A stretch of DNA of 64,000 nt from the NCBI GenBank assembly GCA_003171065.1, contig PMXQ01000112.1, positions 1,076 to 65,075 of the forward strand, in the 5' to 3' direction. The notes under the pieces were generated by a model. It was given only the letters and a program-made list of their open reading frames with translations. It was not told the origin of the DNA and did not search any database. Shown one piece after another: positions 10,191 through 62,094 of this stretch; the first letter of the stretch is position 1; every line of letters starts with the position of its first letter. The position numbers and the translations under genes are program-made. The DNA comes from Chloroflexota bacterium (GTDB lineage: Bacteria; Chloroflexota; Limnocylindria; Limnocylindrales; CSP1-4).

Positions 10191-10201
10191 TAGACGAAGT
10201 C

Positions 10202-11421: not shown

Positions 11422-11449
11422 CCCGGCCAGCCTTCGCGCGCCCGACCCA

Positions 11450-12133: not shown

Positions 12134-12139
12134 GATCGA

Positions 12140-12736
12140 TCAAAGAGTCTCGACCAGCCGAAGAACATCCTCGACTTTGTCTTGTCCCAGAGCGGCCCTA
12201 GGCGTCGAGCCACCCAGATCGGGATTCTCGGCTTCGATCCAGCGCGACAGCGCGAGGACGCTTGCGGGGAAGCGAGCCACAACATCTCGGAGTCCAGGTA
12301 GCACGCCACTTCGCGACCCTGGCTCGAACTGCCACTCTGGAAGCCGCCACTCGCGTCCTTCCTTCAGGCCGACAAGCACCCCTCGTTCGAGCTTGTCGCT
12401 AACAGCCTGGTCGCTCACACCAAGACGTAGCGCGGCCTCATGACGGGTGATGCTCCGCTCAATGAGGCTCTGACGGTGCTCGGTCCCGGTTACGACATTC
12501 CAGGTGATCGCGTCGCCATAGGCCTCGTGACTCGGCTCCGGACCGAAGGCGACGTCGAGCCGCACCGGGACTTGCCTCTGTGGATCGAGGGCAGTCAGGA
12601 TGAACAGCACCGTATCGTGCGAGGCGTTCCGAAGGAGGGCGTCCGTGGCTGCGCGGAGGGTCTTTGCGTCTGCGGTGGCTGGAATGGAACCGATCATCAT
12701 GCCACCAAGCCTACGCAAGATACGCAAGCATGTCAA
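12140..12736 (-). CDS. Xre/MbcA/ParS-family antitoxin (HTH + DUF2384-like toxin-binding C-terminus)
   Basis: HTH in ITRHEAALRLGVSDQAVSDKLERG. The C-terminus ALSRWIEAENPDLGGSTPRAALGQDKVEDVLRLVETL fits the DUF2384 pattern. It ends 6 nt upstream of the RES gene. Confidence 0.75.
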   Translation of the reverse strand: MTCLRILRRLGGMMIGSIPATADAKTLRAATDALLRNASHDTVLFILTALDPQRQVPVRLDVAFGPEPSHEAYGDAITWNVVTGTEHRQSLIERSITRHEAALRLGVSDQAVSDKLERGVLVGLKEGREWRLPEWQFEPGSRSGVLPGLRDVVARFPASVLALSRWIEAENPDLGGSTPRAALGQDKVEDVLRLVETL

Positions 12737-13117
12737 GTTTCACGGCATATCACCGGCCATGCCAGCGGGCGAGGGCGGCTCGCAATGCCCGCTCCCGCCG
12801 CCGGAGCGCCACACGGCCAGCACGCTCTGCCGGGTTGAGTTTGAGATCAGGATCGACTGCCTGCTCGTCTTTGGAGGCTAGGGCCTGGCGGCCTGGCAGC
12901 GTCGCGGCGCTCCGGTCGCTGCAGGTAGACCATCGGTGACAGCTAGCGATGCGGGCGCGAAGGGCGCGCTCGGCCGGACTGGAGTCTGTAGTCGTTCATA
13001 GGTACCAACTTCAGCCGGACTCGCTCAAAGGCTCCGCCTGGCCGGGCGACACGTTCTCAGTCGCTCGCCCTGTATGAGATTGCCGCGCGCAGGGTAGCAG
13101 GTAGCACAGAGCAACCG

Positions 13118-14068
13118 CTACGGCTTCCGAGATCGCCGGGGCGTGGCGAGCCGATCCATCGGCGACAGGGATTTGTACGCCTCCCGAGCGCGCTCGTCAG
13201 CGGCGGAGGCACCGTACCGGCCGAGCATCGCCCGGCTCGTCCAACCAGCGATCCGCATCAGATCGCCTTCCTGTCCCCCGGCTGCAAGCCAGACATGGGC
13301 GAAGGTGTGACGGAGTTGGTGGGGGTGAACGTCGAGGCCAACTTGCCGTGCCCGGTCGCGGACAACCTGGTAGATGCCGCTCTCGGTCAGCGCACCGTTC
13401 TGGCCGAGCCACATCTCGGGCATATCGGAGAGGCGGTGGTTCTTGCGCTTCCTGAGGTAGCGGTCGAGCAACTCATTTGTCTGCCTGCCGAAGGGCACGG
13501 CACGCTCGCGGCTGAACTTCCCGGTGACGTGGACGACGTTGAGGTCCAGGTCCACATCGGCGACCTGCAGCCCGGCGCATTCCCCGCGCCGAAGCCCGCT
13601 GTCGATCAGGAGCGCGATGATCGCCAGGTCCCGGATCGAGTTGAAGTCCCTGCCCTGGCAGGTGGCCAGGAGCCTGCCCAACTCAGCCTCTCCAAGCACC
13701 GGAGGCGGCTGGAGAGGCACGATGGGCGGCTTGATGTGGACCTGGGGCGAGACCTTGATCTCCCCCTCCTCCACCAACCACCGCCACCACTGAGCCAGGG
13801 CGCGGTAGACCTGGGAGACGGTCGCAGGCGACAACCCCCGCTCGCGGAGGGAGGCCAGGTAAGCCTCGACGTGCTCGCGCTTGATCGCGGAGGGTTCAGT
13901 CGGCATTCCCGTAGTGGCCAGGTAGCGGCCGAGGTCGTCTATGGCTCGGAGGTAGATTCGCTCCGTCTTGGGAGACCGGCCAGAGGCCCGAAGGCTCCGC
14001 CGGAAGCTGTCTCGGAGGGCTTGGTAGGTGACCGACGCGGCGGGTACGGCAGTCGGAGTGGCATCCAT
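13118..14068 (-). CDS. Tyrosine recombinase / integrase (XerC/D-like fold)
   Basis: [39 protein letters not shown] and [16 protein letters not shown]. It lies adjacent to the tRNA 3' end. Confidence 0.9.
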
Positions 14069-14156
14069 GATTCCCGCATGTTAGCGCCTCAGTATGGTCT
14101 ATGCGGACCATTCCTGCAGGCTCAGAGGTCGTTAGCGTGCCAGATCACGCTCACAC

Positions 14157-14244
14157 TGGTGGGCGAGGTGAGATTCGAACTCACACGCCGCTTACGCGGC
14201 ACCAGCTCCTAAGGCTGGCGCGTCTGCCATTCCGCCACTCGCCC
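14157..14244 (-). tRNA. tRNA-Leu (anticodon UAG), class II with a long variable arm, CCA encoded
   Basis: Folded by hand. Acceptor stem GGGCGAG/CTCGCCC, anticodon stem CCAGC/GCTGG with loop CTTAGGA, T arm GTGAG-TTCGAAT-CTCAC, discriminator A + CCA. Confidence 0.9.
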
Positions 14245-17270: not shown

Positions 17271-17783
17271 TTGTCGCCAGACCCGAAGCTGGAGCGAAGT
17301 ATGAGCGCCAAGGAGAAGATCGAGGCGGCCGAGCTGGCTGGAATGCCGCTGTTCGAGGGCCTGACAGAAGCCGACCTCGCGCCCCTTGCCGCGGCATCCT
17401 GCCGGCGCCGCCTGAACGATGGCGAAACCCTGGTCGAGATGGGCGACCCGATCTCCGAGATCCACTGGTTGGAGGACGGCCAGCTGGCCCTGCGCGTCCG
17501 CTACGACGGGCGCTGGGTCCTGGTCTCGACGCTGCACGCAGGCGATCTGCTCGGTTGGTCAGCGCTGCGCGAGGACCCGACGGCCCTGTCAACCGCCCGA
17601 GCGATCGGCCCGGCCGTAATGCTCTCGATGCCGGCCTCCGGCCTGCTCGGCCTGCTGGTCGGCAGCTCGTCCCAGTCTCAGCTGCTGCTGCGCCGGCTTT
17701 TTGGGATCGCGACCCAGCACCTGGACGAGAGCCGCGCGCAGCTGCTCCAGCTGGGGCGCGAGGGGGTCATTTCCGCGGGCTGA
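17271..17783 (+). CDS. Cyclic-nucleotide-binding domain protein
   Basis: LFEGLTEADLAPLAAASCRRRLNDGETLVEMGD...GDLLGWSAL matches the cNMP-binding fold pattern. Confidence 0.8.
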   Translation: MSPDPKLERSMSAKEKIEAAELAGMPLFEGLTEADLAPLAAASCRRRLNDGETLVEMGDPISEIHWLEDGQLALRVRYDGRWVLVSTLHAGDLLGWSALREDPTALSTARAIGPAVMLSMPASGLLGLLVGSSSQSQLLLRRLFGIATQHLDESRAQLLQLGREGVISAG

Positions 17784-17850
17784 CGGCGCCGCGGGCTGAC
17801 GGCGCCGCGGGCTGACGGCGCCGCGGGCTGACGGGGCCGCGGACGGCGCG
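17773..17850. repeat. 16-bp tandem repeat CCGCGGGCTGACGGCG, about 4.5 copies
   Basis: Units at 17773, 17789, 17805 and 17821, plus a partial copy. The first unit contains the stop codon of the cNMP-binding gene, and each full unit carries TGA. Confidence 0.85.
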
Positions 17851-17867
17851 CTGGTCTTCGGCGCCCC

Positions 17868-18563
17868 CTAGCGGCGCGAGGCGCGGAGCAGGGCGTCGAG
17901 GTCCGGGATCACGATCATCTCGCGGTCCATGCGCAGCAATCCGTCGGCCACGAACTCGCCCAGCAGCTTGTTCACGCTCTGGCGCGTGGCCCCGATCATC
18001 GCCGCCAGGTCGCTCTGCGTCAGCGGAGCGTCCAGTCGTATCGAGCCGTCGGCGTCGCGCAAGCCGTGCTCCTCCGCCAGCCGTGCCAGCCGCGCCGCCA
18101 ATCGGCCGGTCAGGTCGAGGAAGTGGAGCTCGGCCACGTGGGCGGTCAGACGGCGCAGCTCGGCGGCGATCGAGCTAAGCAGCGCGTCGCGAATCGCCGG
18201 CTCCGACGCCACCAGGGCGCTGAAGCGGACGCGTGGGAGGGCGAGAGTCTCGGTCGCCTCGAGCGCTATCGCGCTGGCGGAGCGGGGCGCCCCGTCCAGG
18301 AGCGCCAGCTCGCCCAGGAAGTCGCCGCGCCGGATCGTCGCCAGGATCGCCTCATCGCCTTCATCCGAGGGCACGACTACCTTGACCGCGCCGGACGCCA
18401 CGATGAACAGCGAGTCGCCGGGGTCGCCCTCGTGGAACAACACCTCGCCCTTCCTGAAGCGCCGCCTCCGCAGGCTCTGGGCGATCGCCAGGCGCGACTC
18501 CGTTCCCAACCCGCTGAACAACGGGCAACGGCCCAGCGCCTCGACGGCGAAATCGTTCGTCAT
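17868..18563 (-). CDS. Crp/Fnr-family transcriptional regulator
   Basis: cNMP-binding domain (LFSGL...GDSLFIVASGAVKV...GDFLGELALL) plus C-terminal HTH (LTQSDLAAMIGATRQSVNKLLGEF). The likely start is M32 at 18563. Confidence 0.85.
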   Translation of the reverse strand: MTNDFAVEALGRCPLFSGLGTESRLAIAQSLRRRRFRKGEVLFHEGDPGDSLFIVASGAVKVVVPSDEGDEAILATIRRGDFLGELALLDGAPRSASAIALEATETLALPRVRFSALVASEPAIRDALLSSIAAELRRLTAHVAELHFLDLTGRLAARLARLAEEHGLRDADGSIRLDAPLTQSDLAAMIGATRQSVNKLLGEFVADGLLRMDREMIVIPDLDALLRASRR

Positions 18564-18650
18564 AGCCAAATGGTAGCGTCGGGAAAGCGCCGGGGCGGCA
18601 TGTTTCGAGGCACGACCACGCCGGAGGCGAGCGCCGCTTACGATTGACCG

Positions 18651-19856
18651 ATGCAACGCCTCTCCGCGGAACGGGTGATCGGCGTCGGGCTCGCCTTGAG
18701 CGCAATCGCGCTCGTGGCGGTGCTGGCGCTCGGTTTCGGCTCGGACCTGCTGACCGGCGTCCCCACCTCCACCCCATCGGCGGGACCGGTCACGCAGGCC
18801 TCAGCGACCGCCGCGCAGGCCGCCTCTCCGGCTCCCACCGCAACGCCGAGCGATTCGCCGACAGCCTTGACGACCCCGGCTCCCACTCCCACGCCAACCG
18901 CCGCGTCCTCTGCCTCGCTCCAACTACCGGCGATGCTGGCAACTATCGGAGATTCCTACACCCAGGCGTGGAGCGTTTCGCCGGCCTACAAGAAGGATCA
19001 CCCGGGTTACTCATGGGCAGTGGGCAACGTCAAGGGCGATCACGTCTTCAGCCTGCGAGAGCGGTTCGAGGCCCTCGGCGACAACGTTGCGGTCGTTGAC
19101 GCGGCGACGTCGGGCAAGAAGATGAGCGACGCCGCGCGCCAGGCCACGGAGATCGTGGCGGCGGCCGGGTCGCTGGCGCCGGGCGCGACCGTCTTCGTCA
19201 CCTTCGAGCTCGGCACGAACGATCTGTGCGACACCCCGACGACCGATCCGGCGACGTTCGAGACGCAGCTTCGCGCCGCGGTCGACATCCTCCGCTCCGG
19301 ACTGCCGAGCGGGAGCGAGATCCTGATGCTCTCAGTTCCCGACTTCTCACATTTCTACGCCATAACACAGGCGAACGCGGAGGCCAAGGCGACCCTGAGC
19401 GAGGCGGCCCACGCGCAGACCTGCGCGCCGTTCCTCGGTTGGGACAGCCCGCTCACAATCGGCGCGGCCCGCCAGTTGCTGGCCACCTACGACGCGACCC
19501 TTGGCCAGGTCTGCGGCGAGATCGAGGCGACCGACGGCCAGGCCGGCAAGCTCCACTGCCTCAGCAACGAAGCACTCCTGTCCGAGAAGGACTTCACGAT
19601 CAAGGACCTCAGCACGGTCGACTACTTCCATCCATCGCTCTCGGGACAGGCCAAGATGGCGGCGTCGGCCTGGGCGGCCGGCTATTGGGCCAACGTCCAG
19701 CTGCCTCCGGGGGCGGCCGCGCTCGCGCTCGGTGATGCGGGTGGGCCCGGCGGCGGATACTTCGGCGGAGTCGCCCCGGCGGGAATCGCCCCGATCGTGC
19801 CGTTCCTGCTGGGAGGTCGGCGGCGCCGACGGCTAGCTCGCCGCCCTACGCGCTGA
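18651..19856 (+). CDS. Secreted SGNH/GDSL-family hydrolase with a C-terminal Gly-rich/TM/Arg-tail anchor
   Basis: Block I IGDSYT, block III ELGTNDLC, block V DYFHPS. The N-terminal TM is followed by a Pro/Thr/Ala linker. The C-terminus is GIAPIVPFLLGGRRRRRLARR. Confidence 0.75.
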   Translation: MQRLSAERVIGVGLALSAIALVAVLALGFGSDLLTGVPTSTPSAGPVTQASATAAQAASPAPTATPSDSPTALTTPAPTPTPTAASSASLQLPAMLATIGDSYTQAWSVSPAYKKDHPGYSWAVGNVKGDHVFSLRERFEALGDNVAVVDAATSGKKMSDAARQATEIVAAAGSLAPGATVFVTFELGTNDLCDTPTTDPATFETQLRAAVDILRSGLPSGSEILMLSVPDFSHFYAITQANAEAKATLSEAAHAQTCAPFLGWDSPLTIGAARQLLATYDATLGQVCGEIEATDGQAGKLHCLSNEALLSEKDFTIKDLSTVDYFHPSLSGQAKMAASAWAAGYWANVQLPPGAAALALGDAGGPGGGYFGGVAPAGIAPIVPFLLGGRRRRRLARRPTR

Positions 19857-32770: not shown

Positions 32771-32880
32771 CATGCCCCCTGTCAAGCGCGAACGCCTCGG
32801 GGGCGAGCCGCGAGCCCCATCCCGCATCTACCAGCTCGCGGTTCCTCCACGGCCGCGAGCTCCACCCCGAGGGAGGAGCC

Positions 32881-33762
32881 ATGAGCATCGCGGTTCTGGA
32901 AGCAACTCAATCGCCGGCCTCGAGCCGGCCCATCGCCAACGAGTTCCCGGCCGGCCCGGCCGCCCTGCTGGTCGACCACGCCACCAAGTGGTTCAAGGTC
33001 GATCGACGCAAGCCACCGGTCATGGCCGTGGACGACGTCTCGATCCGCATCGAGCGGGGCGAGATCTACGGCCTGCTCGGGGCGAACGGAAGTGGCAAGT
33101 CCACGTTCATTCGCCTGGTGAGCGGCCTGCTGACCCTCGACGCAGGTCGGGTCGAGGTCTTCGGCCACGACCTGGTCCGCGAGGAGATGGCGGTCAAGCG
33201 GCTGATCAATCGGGTCAGCGTCGACGCCGCCTTCTTCAAGAAGCTCTCGCCGGCCGAGAACCTCTCGTTCGCGGCCCGTCTCTACGGCCTGGACGCAGGC
33301 GAAGCCCGCCGAAAGGCGGCGCTGATCATGGCCCGCCTGGGCATCGGCGAGAAGCGGATGGGCCGGCCGGTCGAGCAGATGAGCCGGGGCATGCAACAGA
33401 AGGTCGCCATCGCCAGGGCAATCCTGACGAGCCCGACGCTGCTGCTGCTGGACGAGCCCACGACCGGGCTCGACCCGCGATCGAAGCTCGACGTCCAGTC
33501 GTTCGTCGAGGAACTTCGGGCCGATCACGAAGCGACGATCGTTTTGACCACGCACGACCTCGCGGAGGCCGATCGGCTGTGCGGGCGAATCGGAATCCTG
33601 GCCGGCGGGCGACTGACGGCCGAGGAGACGCCCGAACGCCTCAAGACACGCGTCGCCTTCGAATACGGACTTCCGCCCACGCTCGAAAGCGCCTTCATGC
33701 AATACACCGGCCGCTCCCTCGACGACGACGTCGAGGAGGGCGAAGCCGAGCCGGCTGAATAG
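32881..33762 (+). CDS. ABC transporter ATP-binding protein (ABC-2 / DrrA-like exporter type)
   Basis: Walker A GANGSGKST, signature MSRGMQQK, Walker B LLLLDEPTTGLD. The ATG is preceded by GGGAGGAG. Confidence 0.9.
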   Translation: MSIAVLEATQSPASSRPIANEFPAGPAALLVDHATKWFKVDRRKPPVMAVDDVSIRIERGEIYGLLGANGSGKSTFIRLVSGLLTLDAGRVEVFGHDLVREEMAVKRLINRVSVDAAFFKKLSPAENLSFAARLYGLDAGEARRKAALIMARLGIGEKRMGRPVEQMSRGMQQKVAIARAILTSPTLLLLDEPTTGLDPRSKLDVQSFVEELRADHEATIVLTTHDLAEADRLCGRIGILAGGRLTAEETPERLKTRVAFEYGLPPTLESAFMQYTGRSLDDDVEEGEAEPAE

Positions 33763-34147: not shown

Positions 34148-34942
34148 TTGACCGCAATCAGGCGCGAGACGCTGGCCAGCTATGCCTTCGTTGAGCGCAA
34201 CTTCAACCTGACCAAGCGCTACTTCGGCTGGGAAGTGGCCTTCCTCGTCTACGCCGTGGCTGGCGCGCTTTCGGTCTCGCTGATCGGCGAGTCGGTCGGC
34301 AACCGCCGCCTGCTCATGTCGCTCGTGGTCGGCGCCGTCTTCTGGAACTACCTGTCCGTCGTCTTCAGCTCGATCGGCGACACGATCTCGTGGGAGCGAT
34401 GGGAGGGCACGCTCGAGTACACGATGATGGCCCCGGTCCGGCGCTCCGTGCAGCTTCTCGGGTCCGCGCTGTACGCGGTGATCTACGGCCTGATCCACAC
34501 GACGATCCTGCTGATCGTGCTGGCGCTCTTCTTCTCGCTCGACCTCGGCCACGCCAACCTGGGCGCGGCCGCGATCTTCATGGTGGTCGGCTCGGCCAGC
34601 TTCATCGGCATCGGGATGCTCGCCGCCATCATGCCCATGATGTCCGTTGAGCGCGGCTCGCAGATGGTCTTCGTCCTCCAGTCGTGCCTGCTCCTGATCA
34701 GCGGGGTATACGCACCACTTCCGTCCTCGATTGGTCCACTCCGTTACATCAGCGAGCTCTCGCCGGCGACCTACGTCCTGCGCGGGGCGCGGTCGGCGCT
34801 GATCGACGGAGCCGGGCCGGATTGGCGCGAGGTGGCCATCCTGGTCGTGATGGCCTGCTTCTTTATCCCGGTCGGGCTGTGGGGCTTCGGTCAGGCCGAG
34901 AGGTACGCCAAGAAGACGGGCAAGTTGAAGCGAGTCGGCTAG
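34148..34942 (+). CDS. ABC-2 type transporter permease
   Basis: The TTG start is preceded by AAGGAG. There are six hydrophobic segments. The C-terminus reads ..LLISGVYAPLPSSIGPLRYISELSPATYVLRGARSALIDG..GLWGFGQAERYAKKTGKLKRVG. Confidence 0.85.
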   Translation: MTAIRRETLASYAFVERNFNLTKRYFGWEVAFLVYAVAGALSVSLIGESVGNRRLLMSLVVGAVFWNYLSVVFSSIGDTISWERWEGTLEYTMMAPVRRSVQLLGSALYAVIYGLIHTTILLIVLALFFSLDLGHANLGAAAIFMVVGSASFIGIGMLAAIMPMMSVERGSQMVFVLQSCLLLISGVYAPLPSSIGPLRYISELSPATYVLRGARSALIDGAGPDWREVAILVVMACFFIPVGLWGFGQAERYAKKTGKLKRVG

Positions 34943-34964
34943 GTGCGCGACGATCGACCAAATG

Positions 34965-34997
34965 ACGAAGCCTCGGTCCAAGAGGCCGAGGCTTCGT
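34965..34997. terminator. 12-bp perfect stem hairpin between convergent genes
   Basis: ACGAAGCCTCGG-(9 nt)-CCGAGGCTTCGT. There is no clear U-run. Confidence 0.45.
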
Positions 34998-35038
34998 GCT
35001 CCTTCCGTACGGTTGCGGCTGCGGGCTTGCGGGCGGGT

Positions 35039-35434
35039 CTACCTAGACGCAGTGCACAAGTAGTTGATGTCCGTGCTGACGAGTTGGACCTCGTCAATCC
35101 CCATCGACGGGCCAAGCGAGGCGTCGTTCAGGCCCGCGACGATCGCGGCACATGCCTTCTTAACAAGTTCGCTCTTGGCATCCACAGAGTCAACCAGAAT
35201 GACTTCTATGTCCGGTCCGTCCCCAAGATGCCCCGCTGGATATACGGTCACGTCTGGCAGACCCTTAACCCGATTGAGGATTCCGTACCAGTCGGTGTCT
35301 TTCGCGATGGTCTGTATACGTACAGCCGCGGCACGGGAGAGCGTGGGGTCCGGGATGGGTTCCTTGGTCCCGAGGCAGGCGCCCACGGCTACCGCAAGAA
35401 GAATCGCCAACGAGATCCCCAACCCTCTCCGCAT
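35039..35434 (-). CDS. Lipoprotein, hypothetical (cargo of cassette 1)
   Basis: MRRGLGISLAILLAVAVGACLG lipobox. 131 aa. Confidence 0.6.
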   Translation of the reverse strand: MRRGLGISLAILLAVAVGACLGTKEPIPDPTLSRAAAVRIQTIAKDTDWYGILNRVKGLPDVTVYPAGHLGDGPDIEVILVDSVDAKSELVKKACAAIVAGLNDASLGPSMGIDEVQLVSTDINYLCTASR

Positions 35435-35547
35435 TTGCTGAATCTAGCACTTCGCCTTGGGGTTGAAGACGGAGTAGGCAATACCGGCCCAACTGTCCCC
35501 GTGCGGTCTTGCATAGTCTGGTGCGAGAACGTGCGGTCTGCAGTAGT

Positions 35548-35798
35548 CCACCGGCGTGTACTACTCGACCGACATCCTGCCCGGCTGGATGCAGCTGCTG
35601 TCCCGCATATCGCCGGCCACTTATGTCCTCGATGCAGTCCGCCGATCGCTGATCGACGGCGCCTCGGTGGACCAGCTGCTGCCCGATCTATGGCCGCTGC
35701 TGGCGATGGCCTTTGTCTTCATTCCGCTCGGGTTGTGGGGCTTCGGCAAGGCCGAGCGCTACGCCAAGCGAACCGGGAAGCTGAAGAGGGTGGGCTGA
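35548..35798 (+). pseudogene. Orphan 3' fragment of an ABC-2 permease gene (copy B, divergent)
   Basis: It translates to TGVYYSTDILPGWMQLLSRISPATYVLDAVRRSLIDG..IPLGLWGFGKAERYAKRTGKLKRVG*. An in-frame TAG lies two codons upstream, and the N-terminal TM segments are absent. Confidence 0.8.
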
Positions 35799-35801
35799 GC
35801 G

Positions 35802-36932
35802 ATGGCTACCCTTGACGTCGCCGCCGGCTCACCGGCGGCGCTCCCCTGCTCTGTCGAACCCCCCGACGCATTGCGCGCCTGGGGGTGGGATGCGGAGCGG
35901 GCAGTGGAGTTCGAGCCGCTTGCCGAGGCCGGCCTCTGGCCCGCCCGAGTTGCCGCGCAACATCGCGGTCTCTGGCTCGTTGTTGGAGCCAGGGGCGAGG
36001 CGTTCGCATCTCCAACCGGGCGGCTACGTCATCGTGCAGACGAAGGCGACCTGCCTTCGGTTGGCGATTGGGTCGGCTGTGTCTCTTCGCCTCATGACGG
36101 CGAGGCGCGGATTGACCTCGTTCTTGCGCGGCGCTCGATGTTCCGCCGGAAGGCGGCCGGGTCTCGCCTTGCCGCTCAGGTCGTCGCTGCCAACGTAGAC
36201 ACCATCTTCGTGGCCACATCACTCAACGGCGACCTGAACGAAAGACGGCTCGAACGGTACGTGGCGATGGGTCGCGAATCCGGCGCCGAGCCGGTCGTGC
36301 TCCTGACCAAGGCTGATCTTGCCGACGCAGACGCACGCGATTCGGCTGTTCGCCTTGAAACGGAGCTGCGTGTCCATGTCATCGCCCTCAGCTCTCGCAC
36401 GGGCGAAGGTCTCGACTCAGTGTCCCGCTGGTTCGCGGCGGGAAAGACGCTGGCCCTCGTCGGGTCGTCGGGCGTCGGCAAGTCGACGCTGCTCAACAGG
36501 CTCGCCGGTCAGGAGCTGATGGTCACGCGCGAGATCCGCGAGGACGACGGCCGTGGCCGCCACACCACGACTCATCGAGAGTTGTTCTTGCTGGCCAGCG
36601 GAGCGCTGGTTCTCGACACGCCGGGAATGCGAGAGTTCGGACTCTGGGATGCCGAGGACGGCGTCGACGACACGTTCGCGGAGATCGTCGAGATCGCGGT
36701 TGGTTGTCGTTTCGCCGACTGCTCTCACAAGTTCGAGCCTGGCTGCGCTGTCCAGGCGGCCGCGGCACGTGGAAGGCTCGACCAAGCCCGTCTCAAAGCC
36801 TATCGTCGCCTGGCCCGCGAACTGGCCGACCAGCCGAAACCAGCGACACGTCGCGAGAAGGACCGGCAGTTCGGCAGAGCGGTTCGCAATGCCTCCGCCG
36901 AGCGTATGGCTCGCAAGCGCTACCCCGGCTGA
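35802..36932 (+). CDS. rsgA: Ribosome small-subunit-dependent GTPase A
   Basis: VVANVDTIFVATSLN, LLTKADL, GSSGVGKSTLLNRL, GRHTTTHRELF, DTPGMREFGLW, and the zinc knuckle CRFADCSHKFEPGCAV. Confidence 0.9.
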   Translation: MATLDVAAGSPAALPCSVEPPDALRAWGWDAERAVEFEPLAEAGLWPARVAAQHRGLWLVVGARGEAFASPTGRLRHRADEGDLPSVGDWVGCVSSPHDGEARIDLVLARRSMFRRKAAGSRLAAQVVAANVDTIFVATSLNGDLNERRLERYVAMGRESGAEPVVLLTKADLADADARDSAVRLETELRVHVIALSSRTGEGLDSVSRWFAAGKTLALVGSSGVGKSTLLNRLAGQELMVTREIREDDGRGRHTTTHRELFLLASGALVLDTPGMREFGLWDAEDGVDDTFAEIVEIAVGCRFADCSHKFEPGCAVQAAAARGRLDQARLKAYRRLARELADQPKPATRREKDRQFGRAVRNASAERMARKRYPG

Positions 36933-36934
36933 TC

Positions 36935-37046
36935 ATCCCTGTCGGGCTGTGAGCTCAGAAGCCGGCGTCAGCTGTGATAACGCAGCAGCGTGAACTGGGC
37001 CGAGCACCACGCCAGGCGAACCGGGAAGCTAAAGAGGGTGGGCTGA
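36935..37046 (+). pseudogene. Degenerate relic of the last ~80 bp of the permease gene (copy E)
   Basis: ATCCCTGTCGGGCTGTG matches 34866..34882 of the intact gene. After a ~45-nt unrelated insert, the last 48 nt (36999..37046) differ from the B tail 35751..35798 at about 5 positions. Confidence 0.65.
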
Positions 37047-37087
37047 GTCTCAGAAAGTCGGCGCGTGGCCCTGACACAATTGCGCCC

Positions 37088-37783
37088 ATGACCTACGAGT
37101 CAGAGGCGATTGCTCGCGCGTTCTACGCCGCGCTGACCCCGGCCGGTCTGGCCGGCAGGACACAGACCGAGTGGGACGAACTCATCCTGCGCGACCTGGC
37201 CGAGCTGCTCCCGCCCGCGAACCGCATCCTCGACGTGGGCTGCGGCTACGGGCGCCTGGCCGTGCCCCTGGCGGTCGCGGGATACCAGGTCCAAGGCCTC
37301 GACCTGTCCGCCGTGATGATCGAGGCGGCGCAGGAGAACGCGGCCGAGGCCGGCGTGCGCATTCCGTTCGTGGTCGGGTCGATGACGGATCTGCCCTACG
37401 ACGACGCGTCGTTCGACGTCGTGCTCTGCCTGTGGTCGGCCTTCCACGAACTCCTCGAAGTACACGCCCAGACCGCGGCCATCCACGAGATGTGGCGCGT
37501 GCTGGTGGGCGACGGGATCGGCGTCATCGAAGGACCGCCCTACACCTCACCAACGGCGAAGGAGATCGCGCGCGGCTACCGGCGCGGACACGAGCATCGC
37601 GTGCGCTGGGACCTTATCGATGGTTTACCCAACCCCCACTACGTCCACGACGAGCGCAGCCTCGCGGAACGCTGTCGTGCGGCCGGTGTGACATCGTTCG
37701 ACGTGCTGCCGCGGGATTGGGGCGGTCGTCCTCGCCTCCTTCTTCGCCTGCGTAAGCTGCATCAAACGAGCCTCACCCGATGA
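37088..37783 (+). CDS. Class I SAM-dependent methyltransferase
   Basis: Motif I ILDVGCGYGRLAVPLA, plus QGLDLSAVMIEAA and FDVVLCLWSAF. The start ATG 37088 is chosen because the longer track ORF reads through relic E. Confidence 0.85.
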   Translation: MTYESEAIARAFYAALTPAGLAGRTQTEWDELILRDLAELLPPANRILDVGCGYGRLAVPLAVAGYQVQGLDLSAVMIEAAQENAAEAGVRIPFVVGSMTDLPYDDASFDVVLCLWSAFHELLEVHAQTAAIHEMWRVLVGDGIGVIEGPPYTSPTAKEIARGYRRGHEHRVRWDLIDGLPNPHYVHDERSLAERCRAAGVTSFDVLPRDWGGRPRLLLRLRKLHQTSLTR

Positions 37784-38584
37784 CCAGCTACCGACCATCC
37801 GACGCCGTCCTCCAGGAATTGACTGCGGGACTGCGGTCGGCACTCGGGGCCGACCTCGTTGCCCTGTATCTGTATGGCTCGTCGGTCTCCGGCGGCTTCG
37901 ACATCGGCGTCAGTGACATCGACCTGCTGGCCGTCACCTCGGATGATGTCGCTGAGACTGACATCGCCGGCATCGAGGCATTTCATCGGCTCATCGTCGA
38001 GCGACATCCAGAGTGGGGTGACCGGCTCGAAGTCGTCTATGTCGGTCGCGATACCCTTGCCGGCTTCCGAGCAGGCGGTCCCCTCGCCGTCATCAGCCCG
38101 GGCGAACCGTTCCACATCCGCAACGGGGTGGAGCTGTGGCTACAGAACTTCTACCTCGTCCGCGAGACCAGCGCCACCCTCTTCGGCCCCGGCCCCGCCG
38201 ACCTGATCCCTGCCATCTCCTGGGGCGAGTTCATGGCCGAGACCGCCCGCTACGCACAGGAGGTGCGACATCGAAGTCTCCGAGACGCGACGCCGGCCGC
38301 GCGGGCGTATTGCGTCCTCACGATGTGCCGGGCCGCTCTGCACGATCCAATCCGAGCGTCCTTGCTCGAAACAGGAGGGGGCGGCATACATCCGGTCGCG
38401 GCGGCCCGAATGGGCATGGCTGATTGCTGCCGCTGAACTCTGCCGTCTCTCCCGAGGGCAGGTGGGCTTCGCGAACGACGAGACGCGAGTAGCAGCAGAG
38501 AACCTCATCCGGCTTCTCGGCGACGAGATTTCCGTTGCACCGATCCTTCCGGACCATCGAAAACGACAGACGGGGGCCGCATGA
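37780..38584 (+). pseudogene. ANT/AadA-like nucleotidyltransferase (NTase + DUF4111-like domain) interrupted by a frameshift near 38330..38345
   Basis: NTase motif LYLYGSSVSGGFDIGVSDIDLL. After ..LTMCRA the homologous continuation LCTIQSERPCSKQEGAAYIRSRRPEWAWLIAAAELCR is in another frame. That frame ends with a TGA overlapping the ATG of the next gene (ATGA at 38581). Confidence 0.6.
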
Positions 38585-39096
38585 GACGATCGAAGGAGAT
38601 ACCAACTGCCACCACGAGCTATCGCGCCGTCGAGCTCGAGCGCCGCTTCGCCGCGGCGAACGGCGACGTGATCGCGTTCGTCCAGGGCCTGACCGACGAC
38701 GACTGGTGCGCTCCTTGTGAGCGCGAGGGCCGGAGCGTCGGCCAGGTCGTCGAGCACATCGCCGCTGGACACCTGATCATCGGCGGGATCGTCGAGGCCA
38801 TGGCTCTCGGGTCGCCCCTGCCAGTCGCCGCCAGACGGACACAGGCGACCGGCGCGCGTTACAACGCCCGCCAGGCTGCCCGTTTCGCTGATCGCTCCCG
38901 GAAAGACGGCCTTCGGTCGTTGCGGAGGAACGGCGGGATCGTCGCGCGATTCCTGGCCAGCCTCACGGACGAACAGCTCGACCGGGCGATTGACACTGCC
39001 GAAGGGCCGATCACGACGCGAGACGAAATCGAGCATGGGCTGATTGGCCACGCTCTTGGCCACATAGAGGCGGTTCGGGAAACGGTGGCGAGGTAG
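38581..39096 (+). CDS. DinB-family (DinB_2 / mycothiol-dependent-enzyme-like) protein
   Basis: FVQGLTDDDWCAP...VGQVVEHIAAGH...HALGHIEAV shows the His-triad-like pattern of the DinB fold. Confidence 0.7.
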   Translation: MRRSKEIPTATTSYRAVELERRFAAANGDVIAFVQGLTDDDWCAPCEREGRSVGQVVEHIAAGHLIIGGIVEAMALGSPLPVAARRTQATGARYNARQAARFADRSRKDGLRSLRRNGGIVARFLASLTDEQLDRAIDTAEGPITTRDEIEHGLIGHALGHIEAVRETVAR

Positions 39097-39275
39097 GCGG
39101 CCGTGCGCCGCGGCGTGCCTTCTCCCCAATCCGAAGACGACGCGGTTCAGTGTATTGACAATCGGCCCATACGCCGCCAAGGATCGCCGACATGCAATCC
39201 AACCCTTTCTACTCCAGCGACCTCAACACCGCCTGCCTATGGCCGCGAACAGGTCTGGGTGTGCCGACGGCCTGA

Positions 39276-40031
39276 GTGATGTCATGGCATGGCGCGTCGT
39301 CAGGCGACGCGCATCAGGCGGCAAGGGCGGTTGGCCGTGCGCTGCTGGGCGCGCTCGGCGACGATCTCGTGGGCGTCTATCTCCACGGCTCTGCCGCGCT
39401 CGGCGGCTTCCGCTGGGAACGGAGCGACCTCGACATCCTGGCGCTGAGCCAAAGGGAGCTCTCGGACCGGCAGATCGGTCAGGTCACCCATGCGCTCGCC
39501 GCCTTGTCCTACCCGGCGAACGGCCTGGAGTTCAGCCTCATGACGGCGAGCGAGGCATCCGCACCCGAGTTCCCTGCGCCACGGTTCCAGCTCCACATGA
39601 CCACCTATGGGACAGCTCACATTGGCAAAGTGGTCGATGGTCGAGCGCGGGCAGGAGATGCCGACCTCGTCCTCCATCTGGCTGTCTGCGAAGTGCGCGG
39701 CATTGCGATCGTCGGGCCACCACCGCGCGAGATCCTCCCTCCGATCCCGGATAGCGCCGTCGCAGCAGCGATGCACGAGGAGATTGATTGGGCGCGCAGG
39801 AACGCTTCCCCGGAATACCTGGTTCTGACCAGCGCCCGGGCCTGGCTGTTCGCCGAGACGCGCCGAATCGCGTCCAAGATCGAGGCCGGCGAATGGGCGG
39901 CCGAACGCTACGGCGAACCGGACGTGATCGAGGCCGCTCTCGCTCGTCAGCGCGGGGCTCAAGCCGAGATAGCCGTGGGTGCAGCGGAGCGGCTGGCCGA
40001 ACACGTGCAGCGCCTCACCGCGCGCGGATAG
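39276..40031 (+). CDS. ANT/AadA-like nucleotidyltransferase-domain protein (second copy, intact)
   Basis: VYLHGSAALGGFRWERSDLDILAL (GS..D.D), with a C-terminal helical DUF4111-like region. Confidence 0.7.
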   Translation: MMSWHGASSGDAHQAARAVGRALLGALGDDLVGVYLHGSAALGGFRWERSDLDILALSQRELSDRQIGQVTHALAALSYPANGLEFSLMTASEASAPEFPAPRFQLHMTTYGTAHIGKVVDGRARAGDADLVLHLAVCEVRGIAIVGPPPREILPPIPDSAVAAAMHEEIDWARRNASPEYLVLTSARAWLFAETRRIASKIEAGEWAAERYGEPDVIEAALARQRGAQAEIAVGAAERLAEHVQRLTARG

Positions 40032-40138
40032 GCTCGCCCTAACGTCTTGCTCACCTGGAGGCAGTTCAGGAGGCCGTGGCAAGGAAGACGCCCAACGCCG
40101 CTGCGCCCCCCTGCTCCGGCACTTCTGCCCGCCAGCGG

Positions 40139-40383
40139 CCACCGGGGTATACGCACCGCTTCCGCCCTCGATTGGCCCGCTCCGCTACATCGACGTACTC
40201 TCGCCCGCGACCTATGTGCTCCGGGGTGTGCGGTCGGCGCTGATCGACGGCGCCGGGCCGGGTTGGGGCGAGGTGGCGATCCTGGTGTCAATGGCCTGCT
40301 TCTTCACCCCGCTCGGGCTGTGGGGCTTCGGCAAGGAAGGGCGTTATGCCAAGCGCACAGGCAAGCTCAAAAGGGTCGGGTGA
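40139..40383 (+). pseudogene. Orphan 3' fragment of the ABC-2 permease gene (copy C)
   Basis: 40144..40383 aligns colinearly with 34703..34942 at roughly 85% nt identity by eye. It translates to TGVYAPLPPSIGPLRYIDVLSPATYVLRGVRSALIDG..GLWGFGKEGRYAKRTGKLKRVG*. Confidence 0.85.
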
Positions 40384-40439
40384 TCGCCTACTGAGGGCTG
40401 ACTGGACCGCACGGTCGTCGGGGTGATCGACCAGGACGG

Positions 40440-41111
40440 CTACGGAGTGCCTCGATACGACGCGCGGGTCCCCGAGCCATCGAAGAGCCAAGCCGTGCCC
40501 TCGACAAGATCGATCTGCGCGTCGTCAACGTGCAGGTGCGCGTCGTCTTCAAGCGCGAGAACAGGCATCCTGTGGAAGGCGTGATACGCGGCAATCCGCT
40601 CGTCTCGCTCGGGCCTGGCGTCGCGAGAGAGGAAATGGACGTTCAGGCTGAATGGCACAAGCCCGAGTCCCGCAAAGTCTCGACAGCCGCACACATTGCC
40701 GTCATTGCTGTTGAGGATGTCCATGCCGCACAGGACCGCCCCGGCGCTGAAACCGATGAGCGGGAGGCCGTGGCGGACACGCTGCGCGATCTCAGCCATC
40801 AGACCGGCTTGTTGGAGCCGGTCAGTGAGCACGAAGGTGTTGCCACCAGGGACGTAGAGAAGAGTGATCTGATCGAGCATCCGCAGGATCGAAGCGCGAT
40901 CCATCGACACGGGATCAAGAAGCTCGACTGCCGCGACCTCTGAGAACCACGACCGAGTCTCTTCGAGGAAGAAGGCGGCATCCAGCGCCGCCGCCGGCAG
41001 ATACCCGACGGAAGGTCGGTCTGAATCCGCCAGATACCCACGACTCGAATCAAGCACACGGGACAGACCATCACCCGGCGTCGCCATCAGGTCGAGTCGA
41101 AGTCCGGTCAT
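40440..41111 (-). CDS. Peptidase S51 family (dipeptidase E / cyanophycinase-like) protein
   Basis: LLYVPGGNTFVLTDRLQQAGL...LIGFSAGAVLCG (nucleophile Ser elbow) ..NVHF. Confidence 0.75.
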   Translation of the reverse strand: MTGLRLDLMATPGDGLSRVLDSSRGYLADSDRPSVGYLPAAALDAAFFLEETRSWFSEVAAVELLDPVSMDRASILRMLDQITLLYVPGGNTFVLTDRLQQAGLMAEIAQRVRHGLPLIGFSAGAVLCGMDILNSNDGNVCGCRDFAGLGLVPFSLNVHFLSRDARPERDERIAAYHAFHRMPVLALEDDAHLHVDDAQIDLVEGTAWLFDGSGTRASYRGTP

Positions 41112-41262
41112 CGTGTCCCTTTTGTCACGGATAGCCGCCTAGACTCTCTGCGGGCCCATCCGCCACGCCAAGCTTACGGCCAGTGGGCGCTGGGCCATGC
41201 GCTCTTCGCGGCATCTGGTTCTATGCCTTTCATGCCGGCGGGCCACCCCTGGACATCGTCTG

Positions 41263-41537
41263 CCACCGGGGTCTACGCGCCACTTCCGTCGTCGATTGGT
41301 CGCAGCGGGCTGCCGCTTCGTCGGCTGCTTACATGAGCTCGAGCCCGGCTGTGCGGTGCGGACGGCGGTCGCCGACGGCCGGCTCGACCCGGACGGCTCA
41401 AGAGTTATGGCCATCTCGCCCACGAGGTGGCAGAACAACCTTCGACCGCCCAACGGCGCGAGAGGGACCGGCGGTTCCAAAAGGCCGTCCGCAACGCCTC
41501 GGCCGAAAGCATGGCCCGCAAGACGTACCGCTGGTAG
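41263..41537 (+). pseudogene. Chimeric relic: permease fragment (TGVYAPLPSSIG) fused to a frameshifted rsgA 3' end (copy D)
   Basis: 41268..41301 matches 34703..34736. 41302..41537 encodes AAGCRFVGCLHELEPGCAVRTAVADGRLDPD, then a 1-nt deletion, then LKSYGHLAHEVAEQPSTAQRRERDRRFQKAVRNASAESMARKTYRW*. This is homologous to the RsgA C-terminus at 36700..36932. Confidence 0.75.
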
Positions 41538-41595
41538 CGTCGACTCTCGGCGGGTGGGGCGACATTGCGTCTTGACCGCGCGGGCGGCGGCGGGG

Positions 41596-42186
41596 ATGCT
41601 CACGCGGATGCGCGATATGCAAGCACCGTGCCGCGCCGGCCTGGTGGCGTTGTCGCTGGTCCTGATATGCGCGGCCTGCTCCGGCGGTGCGGCGACGCCC
41701 GCCCCTGCATCTCGATCCGTGGAGGAGACCGATATGGCCGGCTTCGAACTCAAGAGCCCGAGCTTCGTCGAAGCGGGACCGATCCCGATCAAGCACAGCT
41801 GCGACGGCCAGGACGTCTCGCCGGCGCTGGTGTGGGAGGGCGCTCCCGCGTCGACGGCCGCGCTGGCCCTCATCGTCGACGATCCCGACGCTCGTGGATT
41901 CATCCATTGGGTCGCATACAACATCGCCGGCGGCCCGACCGGCGGGCTGCCTGAGGGAGCCGGCTCGGCGAGCGCGCCTCCACAGGGGCGCAACGACTTC
42001 GGCCGCGTCGGGTGGGGCGGTCCTTGCCCGCCCGGCGGCACGCACCACTACAGGTTCACGTTGTATGCGCTGTCAAGGCCACTCACGCTGAGCGGCACTC
42101 CATCGGCGAGCGAGGTGCGCGGCGCTCTGGCCCGCGTCCTGCTAGGCCACACAACGCTGACGGCGACCTACACCCGCCGGAAGTAG
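41596..42186 (+). CDS. YbhB/YbcL (PEBP, Raf-kinase-inhibitor-like) family lipoprotein
   Basis: Lipobox LSLVLICAACSG, plus LIVDDPDA..FIHWVAYNI, GWGGPCPPGGTHHYRFTLYAL. Confidence 0.85.
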   Translation: MLTRMRDMQAPCRAGLVALSLVLICAACSGGAATPAPASRSVEETDMAGFELKSPSFVEAGPIPIKHSCDGQDVSPALVWEGAPASTAALALIVDDPDARGFIHWVAYNIAGGPTGGLPEGAGSASAPPQGRNDFGRVGWGGPCPPGGTHHYRFTLYALSRPLTLSGTPSASEVRGALARVLLGHTTLTATYTRRK

Positions 42187-42295
42187 GCCGCGCGGGACCG
42201 CCGCCGCGGGCCGACCCGCCGGGCCGCGCCCGGGCCTCCAACGAAGCCGGAGCGGGCGACCGACGCCGGTGCGGGCACCCGGCCGGAGATCCGGT

Positions 42296-61487: not shown

Positions 61488-61805
61488 TCAGCTTCGATCG
61501 GTCGACTTGTTCTGCGGATCTGCCGTGAGTCTCTCGCTGCGCCAGACACGGACGACCCGGATGCGCTCGCCATCGATGCGGTAGACGATCCGGAAGGGCG
61601 GACGGATGAGCTCGCGCAGCCACGGCTGGTCGAACTCGGGCACCACTCGGCCGCTTTCCGGGAAGTCCACAAGCTGGTCCATGCTTGTCAAGATCTCGCG
61701 GACGAGTCGGTCCCCGACGTCCGGCGCAGACTGCGAGACGTACCAGTCGCGAACGGCTTCGAGATCGCGGACCGCCGACTCGGCGAGCGAGATGTGCCCC
61801 GGCAC
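61488..61805 (-). CDS. ParE/RelE-family toxin
   Basis: AESAVRDLEAVRDWY...FPESGRVVPEF...LRELIRPPFRIVYRIDGERIRVVRVW. The GTG at 61805 lies 1 nt after the antitoxin stop. Confidence 0.8.
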   Translation of the reverse strand: MPGHISLAESAVRDLEAVRDWYVSQSAPDVGDRLVREILTSMDQLVDFPESGRVVPEFDQPWLRELIRPPFRIVYRIDGERIRVVRVWRSERLTADPQNKSTDRS

Positions 61806-61806
61806 C

Positions 61807-62094
61807 TCAGTCGAGCCCGAGCCGGCGCCTGGCATCCTCGAGCGACAGTTCGCGGCCCTCCTCGAGGTCGAACAGTCCCGCGACGACGGCCCGCATGAAC
61901 TCGCGCTCTTCCTGTGTCGCCTCGAACTCGGGCAGCGTCTGAACGACCGCGACGCCCCGACCGCGGCTCGTCAACAGGACCGGGCGGCCCGACTCGCCAG
62001 CCCGCCGCACCACTTTGCCCGGGTTCACCTTCAGATCCCCGATAGGGACCACGTCCTCGGAGAACTTCACCCTGGTCCGCATCCGGACCTCCAT
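61807..62094 (-). CDS. Phd/YefM-family antitoxin
   Basis: VPIGDLKVNPGKVVRRAGESGRPVLLTSRGRGVAVVQTLPEFE matches the Phd/YefM N-terminal fold pattern. Confidence 0.8.
   Translation of the reverse strand: MEVRMRTRVKFSEDVVPIGDLKVNPGKVVRRAGESGRPVLLTSRGRGVAVVQTLPEFEATQEEREFMRAVVAGLFDLEEGRELSLEDARRRLGLD

Follow-up and report, generated by a model that had tools for sequence, protein, structure and literature searches.

A 64-kb stretch of chromosomal DNA (68% GC) from an uncultured Candidatus Limnocylindria bacterium of the phylum Chloroflexota, hereafter termed the window, carries an array of unrelated genes directly behind the gene of a DrrB-like ABC-2 permease, and the 3' part of this permease gene recurs between them. 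Insertion occurs at one defined base of the conserved gene and leaves a direct repeat of its 3' part at the far border. The arrays share one exact breakpoint, display constraint at the DNA level and bear the scars of mosaicism and deletion. The explanation we lean towards is that non-autonomous cassettes, each made of a permease tail plus cargo, were inserted serially and site-specifically by an unlinked enzyme acting in trans, and were afterwards shuffled by homologous recombination. The window was compared with ~150 related loci (cited by L numbers), among them 80 species-level relatives; all of the best syntenic loci (80/80) are metagenome-assembled genomes of Limnocylindria sampled from fen, peat and soil.

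Repeated permease tails in the window

Self-comparison by BLASTN bore out the claim of a preliminary description of the window that the permease tail recurs in several places, with E-values from 2.5e-61 down to 1.4e-7. The tail that completes the intact gene (tail A, 34699-34938) matches orphan tail C (40140-40379) with 81.3% identity over 240 nt (E=2.5e-61); the repeat thus extends over the 240 nt described, but at an identity lower than the ~85% given. Orphan tail B (35697-35801) shares 79% identity with C over 105 nt (E=1.6e-19) and 77% with A over 100 nt (E=3.5e-15), and the comparison of 34703..34942 with both C and B, which had been recommended as a check, is significant. At the protein level tail B is colinear with permease residues 185-264 at 55% identity, in agreement with its earlier characterization as divergent yet colinear. 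For fragment E, homology is detectable only at 36998-37047 (92% over 50 nt to B, E=4e-14); of the interval 36935..37046 once assigned to it, these final 50 nt stand, but the remainder, 36935-36997, matches nothing in the self-comparison or in the loci of relatives, and 36942-36997 directly upstream of the fragment has no homologue. Fragment D (41264-41301) aligns with 34699-34736 of tail A at 89% over 38 nt (E=1.4e-7).

The end of rsgA is repeated as well, with 36685-36917 matching 41289-41522 at 68% over 235 nt (E=1.2e-14). As the tblastn match splits into two pieces in different frames, the downstream copy is frameshifted, which agrees with the description of D as fused to a frameshifted rsgA end. 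In each tail the similarity stops within a few bases of the stop codon, as had been noticed. A 13-nt core, CACCGGSGTNTAC, occurs in four copies (at most one mismatch) in the 64-kb window, all of them at tails, compared to 0.5 expected, and four copies were reached in 0/100 shuffles. The identities of the unrelated genes between the tails were borne out by Pfam and NCBIfam. Contigs of five other samples match window positions 30228-50383, or parts of them, at 99.97-100% with unchanged structure, so that the array is structurally identical in assemblies from six samples (the window and five others). Because the same array was assembled independently in these five further samples, an assembly artefact is ruled out.

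Table 1. Features of the permease locus, followed by those of the tRNA-Leu island of the window. A slash marks the insertion junction; ORF, open reading frame.
Feature	Coordinates	Strand	Remarks
DrrA-like ABC ATPase, target operon	32878..33762	+	Pfam ABC_tran 4e-31; in all relatives; start codon uncertain, ORF opens at 32716; NCBIfam drrA subfamily 1e-65, below cut-off
DrrB-like ABC-2 permease, whole gene	34148-34942	+	Pfam, NCBIfam
Permease head, residues 1-184, resident part	34148..34701	+	
Junction/core in the intact gene, CAG/CGGGGTATAC	34699..34711	+	Insertion point between 34701 and 34702
Cassette 1, 850 nt	34702..35551	+	A-type tail, lipoprotein-like gene and right end ...agtcCAC
Lipoprotein-like gene, unassigned	35039-35434	-	Cargo of cassette 1
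Orphan tail B, displaced native B-type	35552..35798	+	88-92% to native tail of L002; intact ORF
Intact rsgA, imported rsgA2 lineage	35802..36932	+	Pfam and relatives
Fragment E, terminal 50 nt of a B-type tail with stop codon	36998..37047	+	
MT-NT1-DinB-NT2 block	37072..40142	+	Right end ...cagcggcCAC
SAM methyltransferase (MT)	37088-37783	+	Pfam/NCBIfam
Nucleotidyltransferase NT1, ANT/AadA-like	37780-38436	+	Pfam/NCBIfam
DinB/MDMPI	38581-39096	+	Pfam/NCBIfam
AadA-like nucleotidyltransferase NT2	39276-40031	+	Pfam/NCBIfam
Diverged DinB-tail remnant	~40045-40090		Between NT2 and tail C
Cassette with tail C and S51 peptidase	40143..41266	+	Right end ...tctgcCAC
Orphan A-type tail C	40143-40383	+	Intact ORF
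S51 peptidase	40440-41111	-	Pfam
Fragment D, first 35 nt of another A-type tail	41267..41301	+	Severed by deletion
Frameshifted 3' remnant of native rsgA	41302..41537	+	
PEBP-family gene	41650..42186	+	Conserved backbone resumes with this gene past the array
tRNA-Leu	14157-14244	-	Abuts tyrosine recombinase of the tRNA island
Tyrosine recombinase	13118-14068	-	tRNA-Leu island
Second tyrosine recombinase	10202-11158	+	tRNA-Leu island
RES-domain toxin gene	11450-12133	-	tRNA-Leu island
HTH (helix-turn-helix) regulator	8713-8964	-	tRNA-Leu island
DnaB-like helicase	1033-2466	-	tRNA-Leu island

Empty sites and other arrays in relatives

Among the 80 species-level relatives, 76 have no array and follow the permease head with a B-type tail, rsgA and the PEBP gene, as exemplified by L002; they represent the empty site. 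The usual gene order is ATPase, permease, rsgA, PEBP, SRPBCC, response regulator and kinase, and in many array-free relatives rsgA starts ~5 nt past the permease stop codon. The native site of array-free loci reads CTGCTCATCAGCGGCGTCTACTAC..., and GCCACCGGGGTATACGCACCACTTCC is sequence belonging to the site of the permease locus. The B-type tail (VYYSTDILPGWMQLL...) is present in all 76 array-free relatives, and orphan tail B of the window begins CGGCGTGTACTAC. The A-type tail (GVYAPLPSSIGPLRYISELS...), which at 34702-34942 forms the present functional end of the window permease, is restricted to loci in which orphan tails are present as well. Because the A-type tail is confined to array loci and the B-type tail is found at all empty sites, the A-type tail is foreign, and the native tail survives in displaced form as orphan B. 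The earlier layout of four equal cassettes accordingly had to be revised, as the tail of the intact gene is the foreign one and orphan B the native one.

Compared to the window, L002 agrees to 93.5% in the head, 94.9% in the ATPase and 91.5% in PEBP, with a tail of only 56%, whereas L091 and L097 agree to 89.6-89.7% in the head, 84-86% in the ATPase and ~60% in PEBP, with a tail of 92.5%. Permease heads of close-clade relatives share 87-93% identity with that of the window, independent of the tail type that these relatives carry. The A-type tail is thus uncoupled from the phylogeny of the backbone. No permease combining a divergent head with an A-like tail was found; past the A-type matches, identity is at most 59% and the tails are B-like. 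Cassette 1 is the cleanest single insertion: its stretch 34943-35548 has no homologue in other loci except in copies of the same array, and its cargo is unique to the lineage.

A search for the tail beside other cargo, as recommended in the preliminary description, recovered ~12 distinct arrays of differing cargo, in the genome bins L001, L034 and L059 and in metagenome contigs (JGI, ENA, Logan; also NCBI). The cargo includes an S66 carboxypeptidase with a nucleotidyltransferase, a 130-aa secreted protein, membrane proteins, a 442-aa protein with an 848-aa Kelch propeller, an IS5-like transposase and a >19-kb defence island. Comparison of related loci for the presence or absence of single cassettes showed that cassettes recur with differing neighbours and that the empty site exists. 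The S51 cassette is common to the window and L104 (86% over 847 nt), with a different upstream neighbour in L104. The MT-NT1-DinB segment (37072-39113) follows rsgA and E in the window and sits directly on the permease head in L059 and L102 (84% over 2 kb), and the cassette of the 130-aa protein (p130) stands first or second in L034, L001 and L081. Altogether, the A-type tail is foreign in origin and horizontally mobile, and the cassettes are modular.

Orphan C-terminal modules lying co-oriented downstream of an intact gene, and keeping intact ORFs, could also be left by the decay of tandem transporter operons, or could form a store of alternative permease C-termini such as those at Rhs/CdiA loci, which the preliminary description had offered as one of its models. 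We consider both highly improbable. Tandem copies of complete transporter operons or of ATPase-permease heads are absent from the ~150 loci, so that the pattern of relatives which was to mark simple decay is not seen; moreover, the orphans all begin at one base, and the A-type tails are foreign to the clade. The tails are DrrB-like membrane-helix segments, and protein identities of 82-94% among the A-type tails mean that these add no variety of function; the cargo, consisting of enzymes and lipoproteins, is not toxin/immunity-like. The Rhs/CdiA comparison is therefore not supported.

Several array lineages have a damaged transporter. In the L081 family (L081-L090, L099 and L105; e.g. L081 7052-7925), ATPase residues 127-294 and permease residues 1-97 are missing; the permease ORF of L059 and L102 ends three codons past the core (ISGVTQ followed by a stop codon; L059 2204-2230); and in L140 (261-1264) cargo follows directly after the ATPase. 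Because the target transporter is damaged in these lineages, it seems to be dispensable, or the insertions seem to be costly, and the benefit of a tail acting as a repair patch is not universal.

The largest island known behind an A-type permease is of defence type and extends >19 kb on its 3' side (L101 9991-19831; L145-L148 1-18800; contigs of 120-159 kb). Its genes in L101 and L145 comprise an IrrE/HTH pair, an M41-like peptidase, HhH-GPD, a C5 DNA methylase, AIPR, DUF4420, Z1 and HATPase_c_3. In addition, two A-type tails of L106 enclose an IS5-like DDE transposase (262-960), whose family was assigned by sequence reading without a profile search, and a C-terminal piece of a similar transposase, likewise recognized by reading, lies within a cassette of L001 (13261-13536). 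Ordinary insertion sequence (IS) elements thus also land in arrays. Within one population, a group II intron reverse transcriptase (RVT_1 and GIIM) is located on one contig at L081 1798-3024 and is missing at the same place in the otherwise colinear L082.

Gene content at this spot also differs among loci in other ways. A gene of ~350 aa with no known function lies between permease and rsgA in L004 (10799-11848), L008, L037, L044 and the majority of the 60-67% clade; it is absent from the clade of the window, which reflects an ancestral difference in the gene complement of this spot. The 442-aa cargo protein of L091 (h442) is 77% identical to the product of a gene between rsgA and PEBP in the array-free L017 (12082-13422), and a homologue (~54%) of its Kelch-like cargo is an ordinary rsgA-PEBP gene in another array-free genome (L007 3207-4892). 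As homologues of L091 cargo reside in genomes that have no array, the interval between rsgA and PEBP represents a second spot of variation, from which cargo may be drawn.

The junction, its recombination history and the proposed enzyme

Intact genes read ...GATCAG/CGGSGTnTAC at the junction (marked by the slash), and every orphan tail, whether A- or B-type, reads ...(G)CCAC/CGGSGTnTAC, whatever sequence lies upstream. The 16 independent families of cargo ends break at NNC/CGGSGT, and their last bases are conserved as C at -1 (15/16), A at -2 (15/16), C at -3 (14/16) and C at -4 (13/16), with binomial P between 1e-3 and 1e-11 per position. Beyond (G)CCAC, the last 110 nt of 18 cargo ends show only family-specific similarity by k-mer and visual comparison. 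The base at -1 always accompanies the left flank and the G/C at +4 the right one, so the exchange falls inside CGG.

On the tail side, conservation extends much further. In 17 distinct full-length A-type tails, synonymous difference is 0.107 in codons 1-10 compared to 0.385 in the rest (permutation P=0.0003), and codons 1-10 favour A/T endings, with a GC content at third codon positions (GC3) of 0.50 against 0.90, the genome value being near 0.88. In a control set of 42 native B-type tails, the corresponding synonymous differences are 0.324 and 0.397 (P=0.14), and the GC3 is 1.0. The consensus of the A-type junction is ...GCCAC/CGGGGTATACGCACCACTTCCG.... We take the frozen first ~30 nt of the A-type tail as a cis-acting site on the mobile tail, judging from the pattern of its substitutions. 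The site is asymmetric, with ~30 nt conserved on the tail side and 4-5 nt on the cargo side. The empty site, the presence and absence of cassettes and the same-base breakpoint in ~16 contexts together support serial site-specific integration with replacement tails, the first of the models in the preliminary description.

The tails themselves have been under selection. All full-length orphan tails are intact ORFs, and their pairwise dN/dS values of 0.06-0.23 at dS of 0.4-1.0 indicate that the tails diverged on working genes in other lineages and were then imported. Secondary REARRANGEMENTS in the window are represented by the mosaic of tail B and rsgA2, the D/rsgA joint and the DinB-tail remnant. 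Sliding-window comparison assigned 35552 to ~35760 to the native B-type (88-92% to L002); from ~35777 onwards, the sequence is that of the rsgA lineage found behind A-type tails in L097, L100 and L103 (77-96% in nucleotides), compared to 52-80% for native rsgA in most windows. With this change of affinity, tail B is joined to the imported rsgA2 by homologous recombination, with a breakpoint at ~35760-35800. This breakpoint falls within the last ~50 nt of the tail, which are conserved by both types and are the part surviving as fragment E; the mosaic occupies 35552-36945. Consequently, rsgA is not simple cargo as once supposed: permease-rsgA is the native order, and the rsgA of the window is an imported copy fused to tail B by recombination.

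At the other end of the array, the rsgA remnant together with PEBP (41300-42192) is orthologous to the native rsgA 3' end and PEBP of L001 (16701-17607, 88%), which identifies the remnant 41302-41537 as the original rsgA. L104 has a full-length counterpart of D, behind which come additional cargo and a B-type tail, so the D/rsgA joint is a deletion scar beside PEBP; the idea of an insertion targeting rsgA was given up for this reason. A second diverged copy of the DinB 3' end (...LEAVQEAVAR) at ~40045-40090 also follows the nucleotidyltransferase in L081 (~9960-10010), which lacks DinB, and probably remains from a second pair of NT and DinB genes. Since this remnant before tail C recurs in L081, deletions have also occurred inside cassettes. 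The alternative that NT2 was brought by a second tail-duplicating insertion, at DinB, was dropped, as L081 has the same remnant without DinB and a remnant of a second pair is simpler.

These scars raise the question of whether general recombination alone could have built the arrays, with foreign DNA from relatives arriving by transformation or transduction and entering the tail by homology-facilitated illegitimate recombination or by Campbell-type crossover of circularised fragments, followed by homologous reshuffling. We regard this as rather unlikely, despite several observations that it accommodates well: the mosaic of tail B and rsgA2 with its breakpoint in the conserved tail end, chimeric tails of A- and B-type sequence in L110 and L115, deletions between repeats (D/rsgA1, L001 and L034), the failure to find a recombinase or a symmetric site, and conserved genes that flank whole arrays and could anchor exchange. 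However, illegitimate joins should scatter, and 16 unrelated cargo ends meet the tail at one nucleotide with CCAC. With DNA identities of ~70-77% along the greater part of the tail, A- and B-type tails are also poor substrates for RecA, and neither the synonymous freeze nor the atypical codons, which are specific to the initial 30 nt of the mobile tail, are predicted by general recombination.

For site-specific insertion in trans, we propose the following scheme. Cassettes would be inserted one by one at a single phosphodiester bond between codons 184 and 185 of the DrrB-like permease gene (CAG/CGGSGT). A typical cassette would open with a movable A-type version of the final 80 codons, which would re-complete the permease gene, and would continue with unrelated cargo on either strand up to a (G)CCAC end. 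Each new insertion next to the head would push the earlier tail downstream, where it becomes an orphan, and the native B-type tail with rsgA would be displaced to the last place. The enzyme would act in trans and would not be encoded by the cassettes. Because the site is asymmetric, with its ~30 nt on one side and 4-5 nt on the other, a capture model is suggested in which new cassettes probably form through recombination between the strong site and a weak, GCCAC-like one downstream, so that neighbours of the permease, including copies of rsgA, are captured. The rsgA copies inside cassettes fit such capture, rsgA being the natural downstream neighbour of the permease, as does h442 of L091 with its homologue between rsgA and PEBP in L017. 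The arrays would then be reshuffled and eroded as repeated tails and copies of rsgA undergo ordinary homologous recombination and as illegitimate deletions occur.

Applied to the window, the scheme would start from an ancestral head-B-rsgA1-PEBP locus. Through a crossover within the conserved final ~50 nt of the tail, a segment of a donor array comprising rsgA2, E, the MT-NT-DinB-NT block, C with the S51 peptidase, and D fused to the rsgA1 remnant may then have been imported; finally, the cassette of A-tail and lipoprotein would have been inserted and B displaced. We infer the dedicated trans-acting enzyme, this order of events and the capture model from the arrangement of the loci. A bolder version is possible, though we put it forward only tentatively: the unlinked enzyme might lie outside both the two-armed attachment (att) site types of tyrosine and serine recombinases and the integron type, using the ~30-nt asymmetric site within a portable, selectable gene tail as landing pad and repair patch, and the same enzyme might make the cassettes via weak GCCAC sites, amounting to a hitherto undescribed gene-capture system of Limnocylindria.

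The search for an enzyme and a vehicle gave negative results. In agreement with the preliminary description, no recombinase or transposase was found in 34.7-41.5 kb by Pfam on ORFs and by regular expressions for recombinase motifs, and Phage_integrase domains are absent from 31-45 kb and from within 10 kb on either side of other arrays. In ~30 cassettes of the ~12 arrays there is no recombinase, transposase or HUH domain, the L101/L145 island being covered short of its distal end. The sole recombinases of the window are two tyrosine recombinases at 10.2-14.1 kb in a tRNA-Leu island ~20 kb away, where the core motif is absent; tblastn of these two integrases against all loci retrieved only tRNA-Leu island integrases unrelated to the permease site. 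The A-type tail protein had 2 weak, unrelated matches among IMG/VR viral contigs, a 21-nt site had 0 matches in IMG/VR, and the A-type tail DNA had no match among PLSDB plasmids. A phage or plasmid carrier was rejected on these results. Folding of 16 junctions on both strands revealed no attC-like fold and no common structure (DNA fold z-scores -2.1 to +2.2), as expected from the earlier description, and Rfam on 32-43 kb gave nothing above the gathering score.

Erosion could explain the missing enzyme if integrase-bearing elements (integrative and mobilizable elements, IMEs; integrative and conjugative elements, ICEs; or prophage-like elements) had targeted the permease and lost their integrase modules, the intact ones being unsampled and possibly represented by the >19-kb L101/L145 island. 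The pattern is known at tRNA, ssrA and fda sites: 15/31 Dehalococcoides ssrA islands are without an integration module (PMC3146451), and tycheposon islands contain remnants and partial tRNAs (10.1101/2020.12.28.424599). L101/L145 is indeed a large defence island covered short of its distal end. Nevertheless, 0/~30 cassettes in the ~12 arrays hold an integrase or a fragment of one, and no attP arm is left beside CAC, so that deletions would each time have had to stop just short of it. The A-type tail and site are absent from the IMG/VR viral contigs and PLSDB plasmids, and cassettes are as small as 850 nt with both ends clean. We therefore judge eroded islands to be an unlikely source of the arrays.

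One long conserved end, 4-5 nt at the other, and the absence of inverted repeats and target duplication also recall non-autonomous HUH units of the IS91/ISCR/Helitron or IS200/IS605 kind. The first ~30 nt of the A-type tail would then be an origin end beside a short CAG/CAC target, with weak termination at ...CCAC, read-through capture, and Rep or TnpA supplied from elsewhere. Insertion 3' of the short conserved sequence CA(G/C), the variable cassette lengths and captured neighbours such as rsgA2 and h442 would suit such units. We find them quite improbable here, since no HUH, Rep or TnpA gene was seen in any locus or in the window and neither end has a conserved subterminal hairpin (fold z-scores -2.1 to +2.2). 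We know of no HUH element that carries a replacement gene tail.

Several points weigh against serial insertion by an unlinked enzyme as well. The whole data set consists of metagenome assemblies, and the largest island, L101/L145, is covered over >19 kb, short of its distal end. No enzyme was found by Pfam, regular expressions or tblastn in cassettes, loci or the surroundings of arrays. The site has no dyad symmetry, its best 9-nt dyad (5-6/9) being equalled or exceeded by 75-94% of shuffles, and its cargo side is without the conserved arm expected of a tyrosine or serine recombinase attP; the synonymous freeze could partly reflect local gene conversion instead of protein binding. The tail-less MT-NT1-DinB block truncates the permease in L059 and L102 (at ISGVTQ), unlike a simple unit of tail plus cargo, and since some arrays (L034) hold a B-type tail in the functional position, homologous recombination contributes greatly. 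As no circular or excised forms were seen and the five re-assemblies of the array are without structural variation, current activity is unproven.

Related systems and the remainder of the window

The Dehalococcoides ssrA islands appear, by analogy, to be the closest published case. They are tandem islands of roughly 10-30 kb separated by 20-bp near-identical repeats of the gene's 3' end, with a conserved 15-bp motif beside every repeat; 16/31 encode the serine recombinase DsiB next to attL, and the 15/31 without an integration module were interpreted as cis-mobilizable and moving by accretion (PMC3146451). Both systems belong to the same phylum and share tandem build-up behind one conserved gene, base-exact insertion and strain-specific accessory cargo. 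They differ in the target, which here lies inside a protein-coding gene, 240 nt upstream of the stop codon, and there is an RNA gene. In addition, the repeat of the permease arrays is a diverged, selected coding tail of 80 codons (55% amino-acid identity between types), their cargo side keeps 4-5 nt, 0/~30 cassettes have a recombinase, and cassette size goes down to 0.85 kb.

ICEs, IMEs and cis-mobilizable elements (CIMEs), such as ICESt1, ICESt3 and the CIMEs at fda in Streptococcus thermophilus, rely on a known integrase, and the CIMEs keep two-armed att sites matching a cognate ICE. Their accretion resembles the present arrays in the gene 3'-end target, the replacement end supplied by the element, the tandem arrangement of non-autonomous elements and a recombinase encoded elsewhere. 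By contrast, the site described here is asymmetric, and no cognate autonomous element or integrase is known. ISEcp1, ISCR and IS91 have one defined end and use weak surrogate second ends to capture neighbours, and integrative mobile elements exploiting Xer (IMEX) and pdif modules are recombinase-free, use a host or unlinked enzyme and accumulate in tandem. The permease arrays differ from both in having no transposase or Rep and no dif-like dyad, and in that insertion restores coding sequence. An Xer-dependent element, which would need a 28-bp dif-like site of two inverted 11-bp arms around a 6-bp spacer, was rejected on the same ground, there being no such dyad at or near the junction.

Tycheposons of Prochlorococcus encode tyrosine or large serine recombinases together with replication modules, and mostly target tRNA genes (10.1101/2020.12.28.424599). 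In their islands, too, successive integrations at the same site push older ones inward, and partial target copies, integrase-less remnants and small adaptive cargo are found; unlike them, the arrays here contain neither recombinase nor replication modules. Integrons and clusters of attC sites lacking integron integrases (CALINs) offer short, recombinase-free cassettes, mostly of one or a few genes, at one platform, a few conserved boundary bases and cargo of detoxification or resistance type (ANT-like nucleotidyltransferases and others). The integron-like model of the preliminary description holds as a fair functional analogy but not as membership: there is no IntI near the array, no attC fold or hairpin, the boundary is (G)CCAC/CGGSGT (CCAC/CGG and not G/TTRRRY), cargo lies on both strands, and the spacer is a coding tail.

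The logic thus seems to be shared with known gene-end islands, and what appears new, against literature consulted on tycheposons and CIMEs/accretion and not on Limnocylindria or a permease/rsgA target, is the internal coding target, the selected and diverged tail, the asymmetric site and the tiny recombinase-free cassettes. If serial insertion in trans is correct, abundant uncultured bacteria of peat and soil would own a compact gene-acquisition platform without cassette-borne recombinases or attC, in which a mobile copy of the gene end keeps the target gene intact during acquisition. It would extend the known ways of stacking small adaptive genes (integrons, tRNA/ssrA islands, tycheposons and pdif modules). 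The base-exact site and the 30-nt candidate recognition sequence provide a handle for an enzyme hunt, and orphan gene tails with a fixed breakpoint could be a general signature of such hotspots in metagenomes. Should the arrays instead be eroded ordinary islands, they would still show at high resolution how elements accrete at a protein-coding target in Chloroflexota.

Outside the array and the tRNA-Leu island, the window contains housekeeping genes, as judged by Pfam. The island at 1-14244 is a classical tRNA-targeted genomic island with its left border outside the window and a GC3 below that of the rest; besides the genes in Table 1, it has several ORFs matching no family. About five tandem copies of the 16-nt unit CCGCGGGCTGACGGCG occupy 17773-17852, in the short interval separating a cNMP-binding gene (17271-17783, +) from the convergent gene of a Crp-family regulator (17868-18656, -). 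Near the right end, a ParE-family toxin gene (61488-61835, -) is overlapped by a small upstream ORF (61807-62094, -) that probably encodes its antitoxin.

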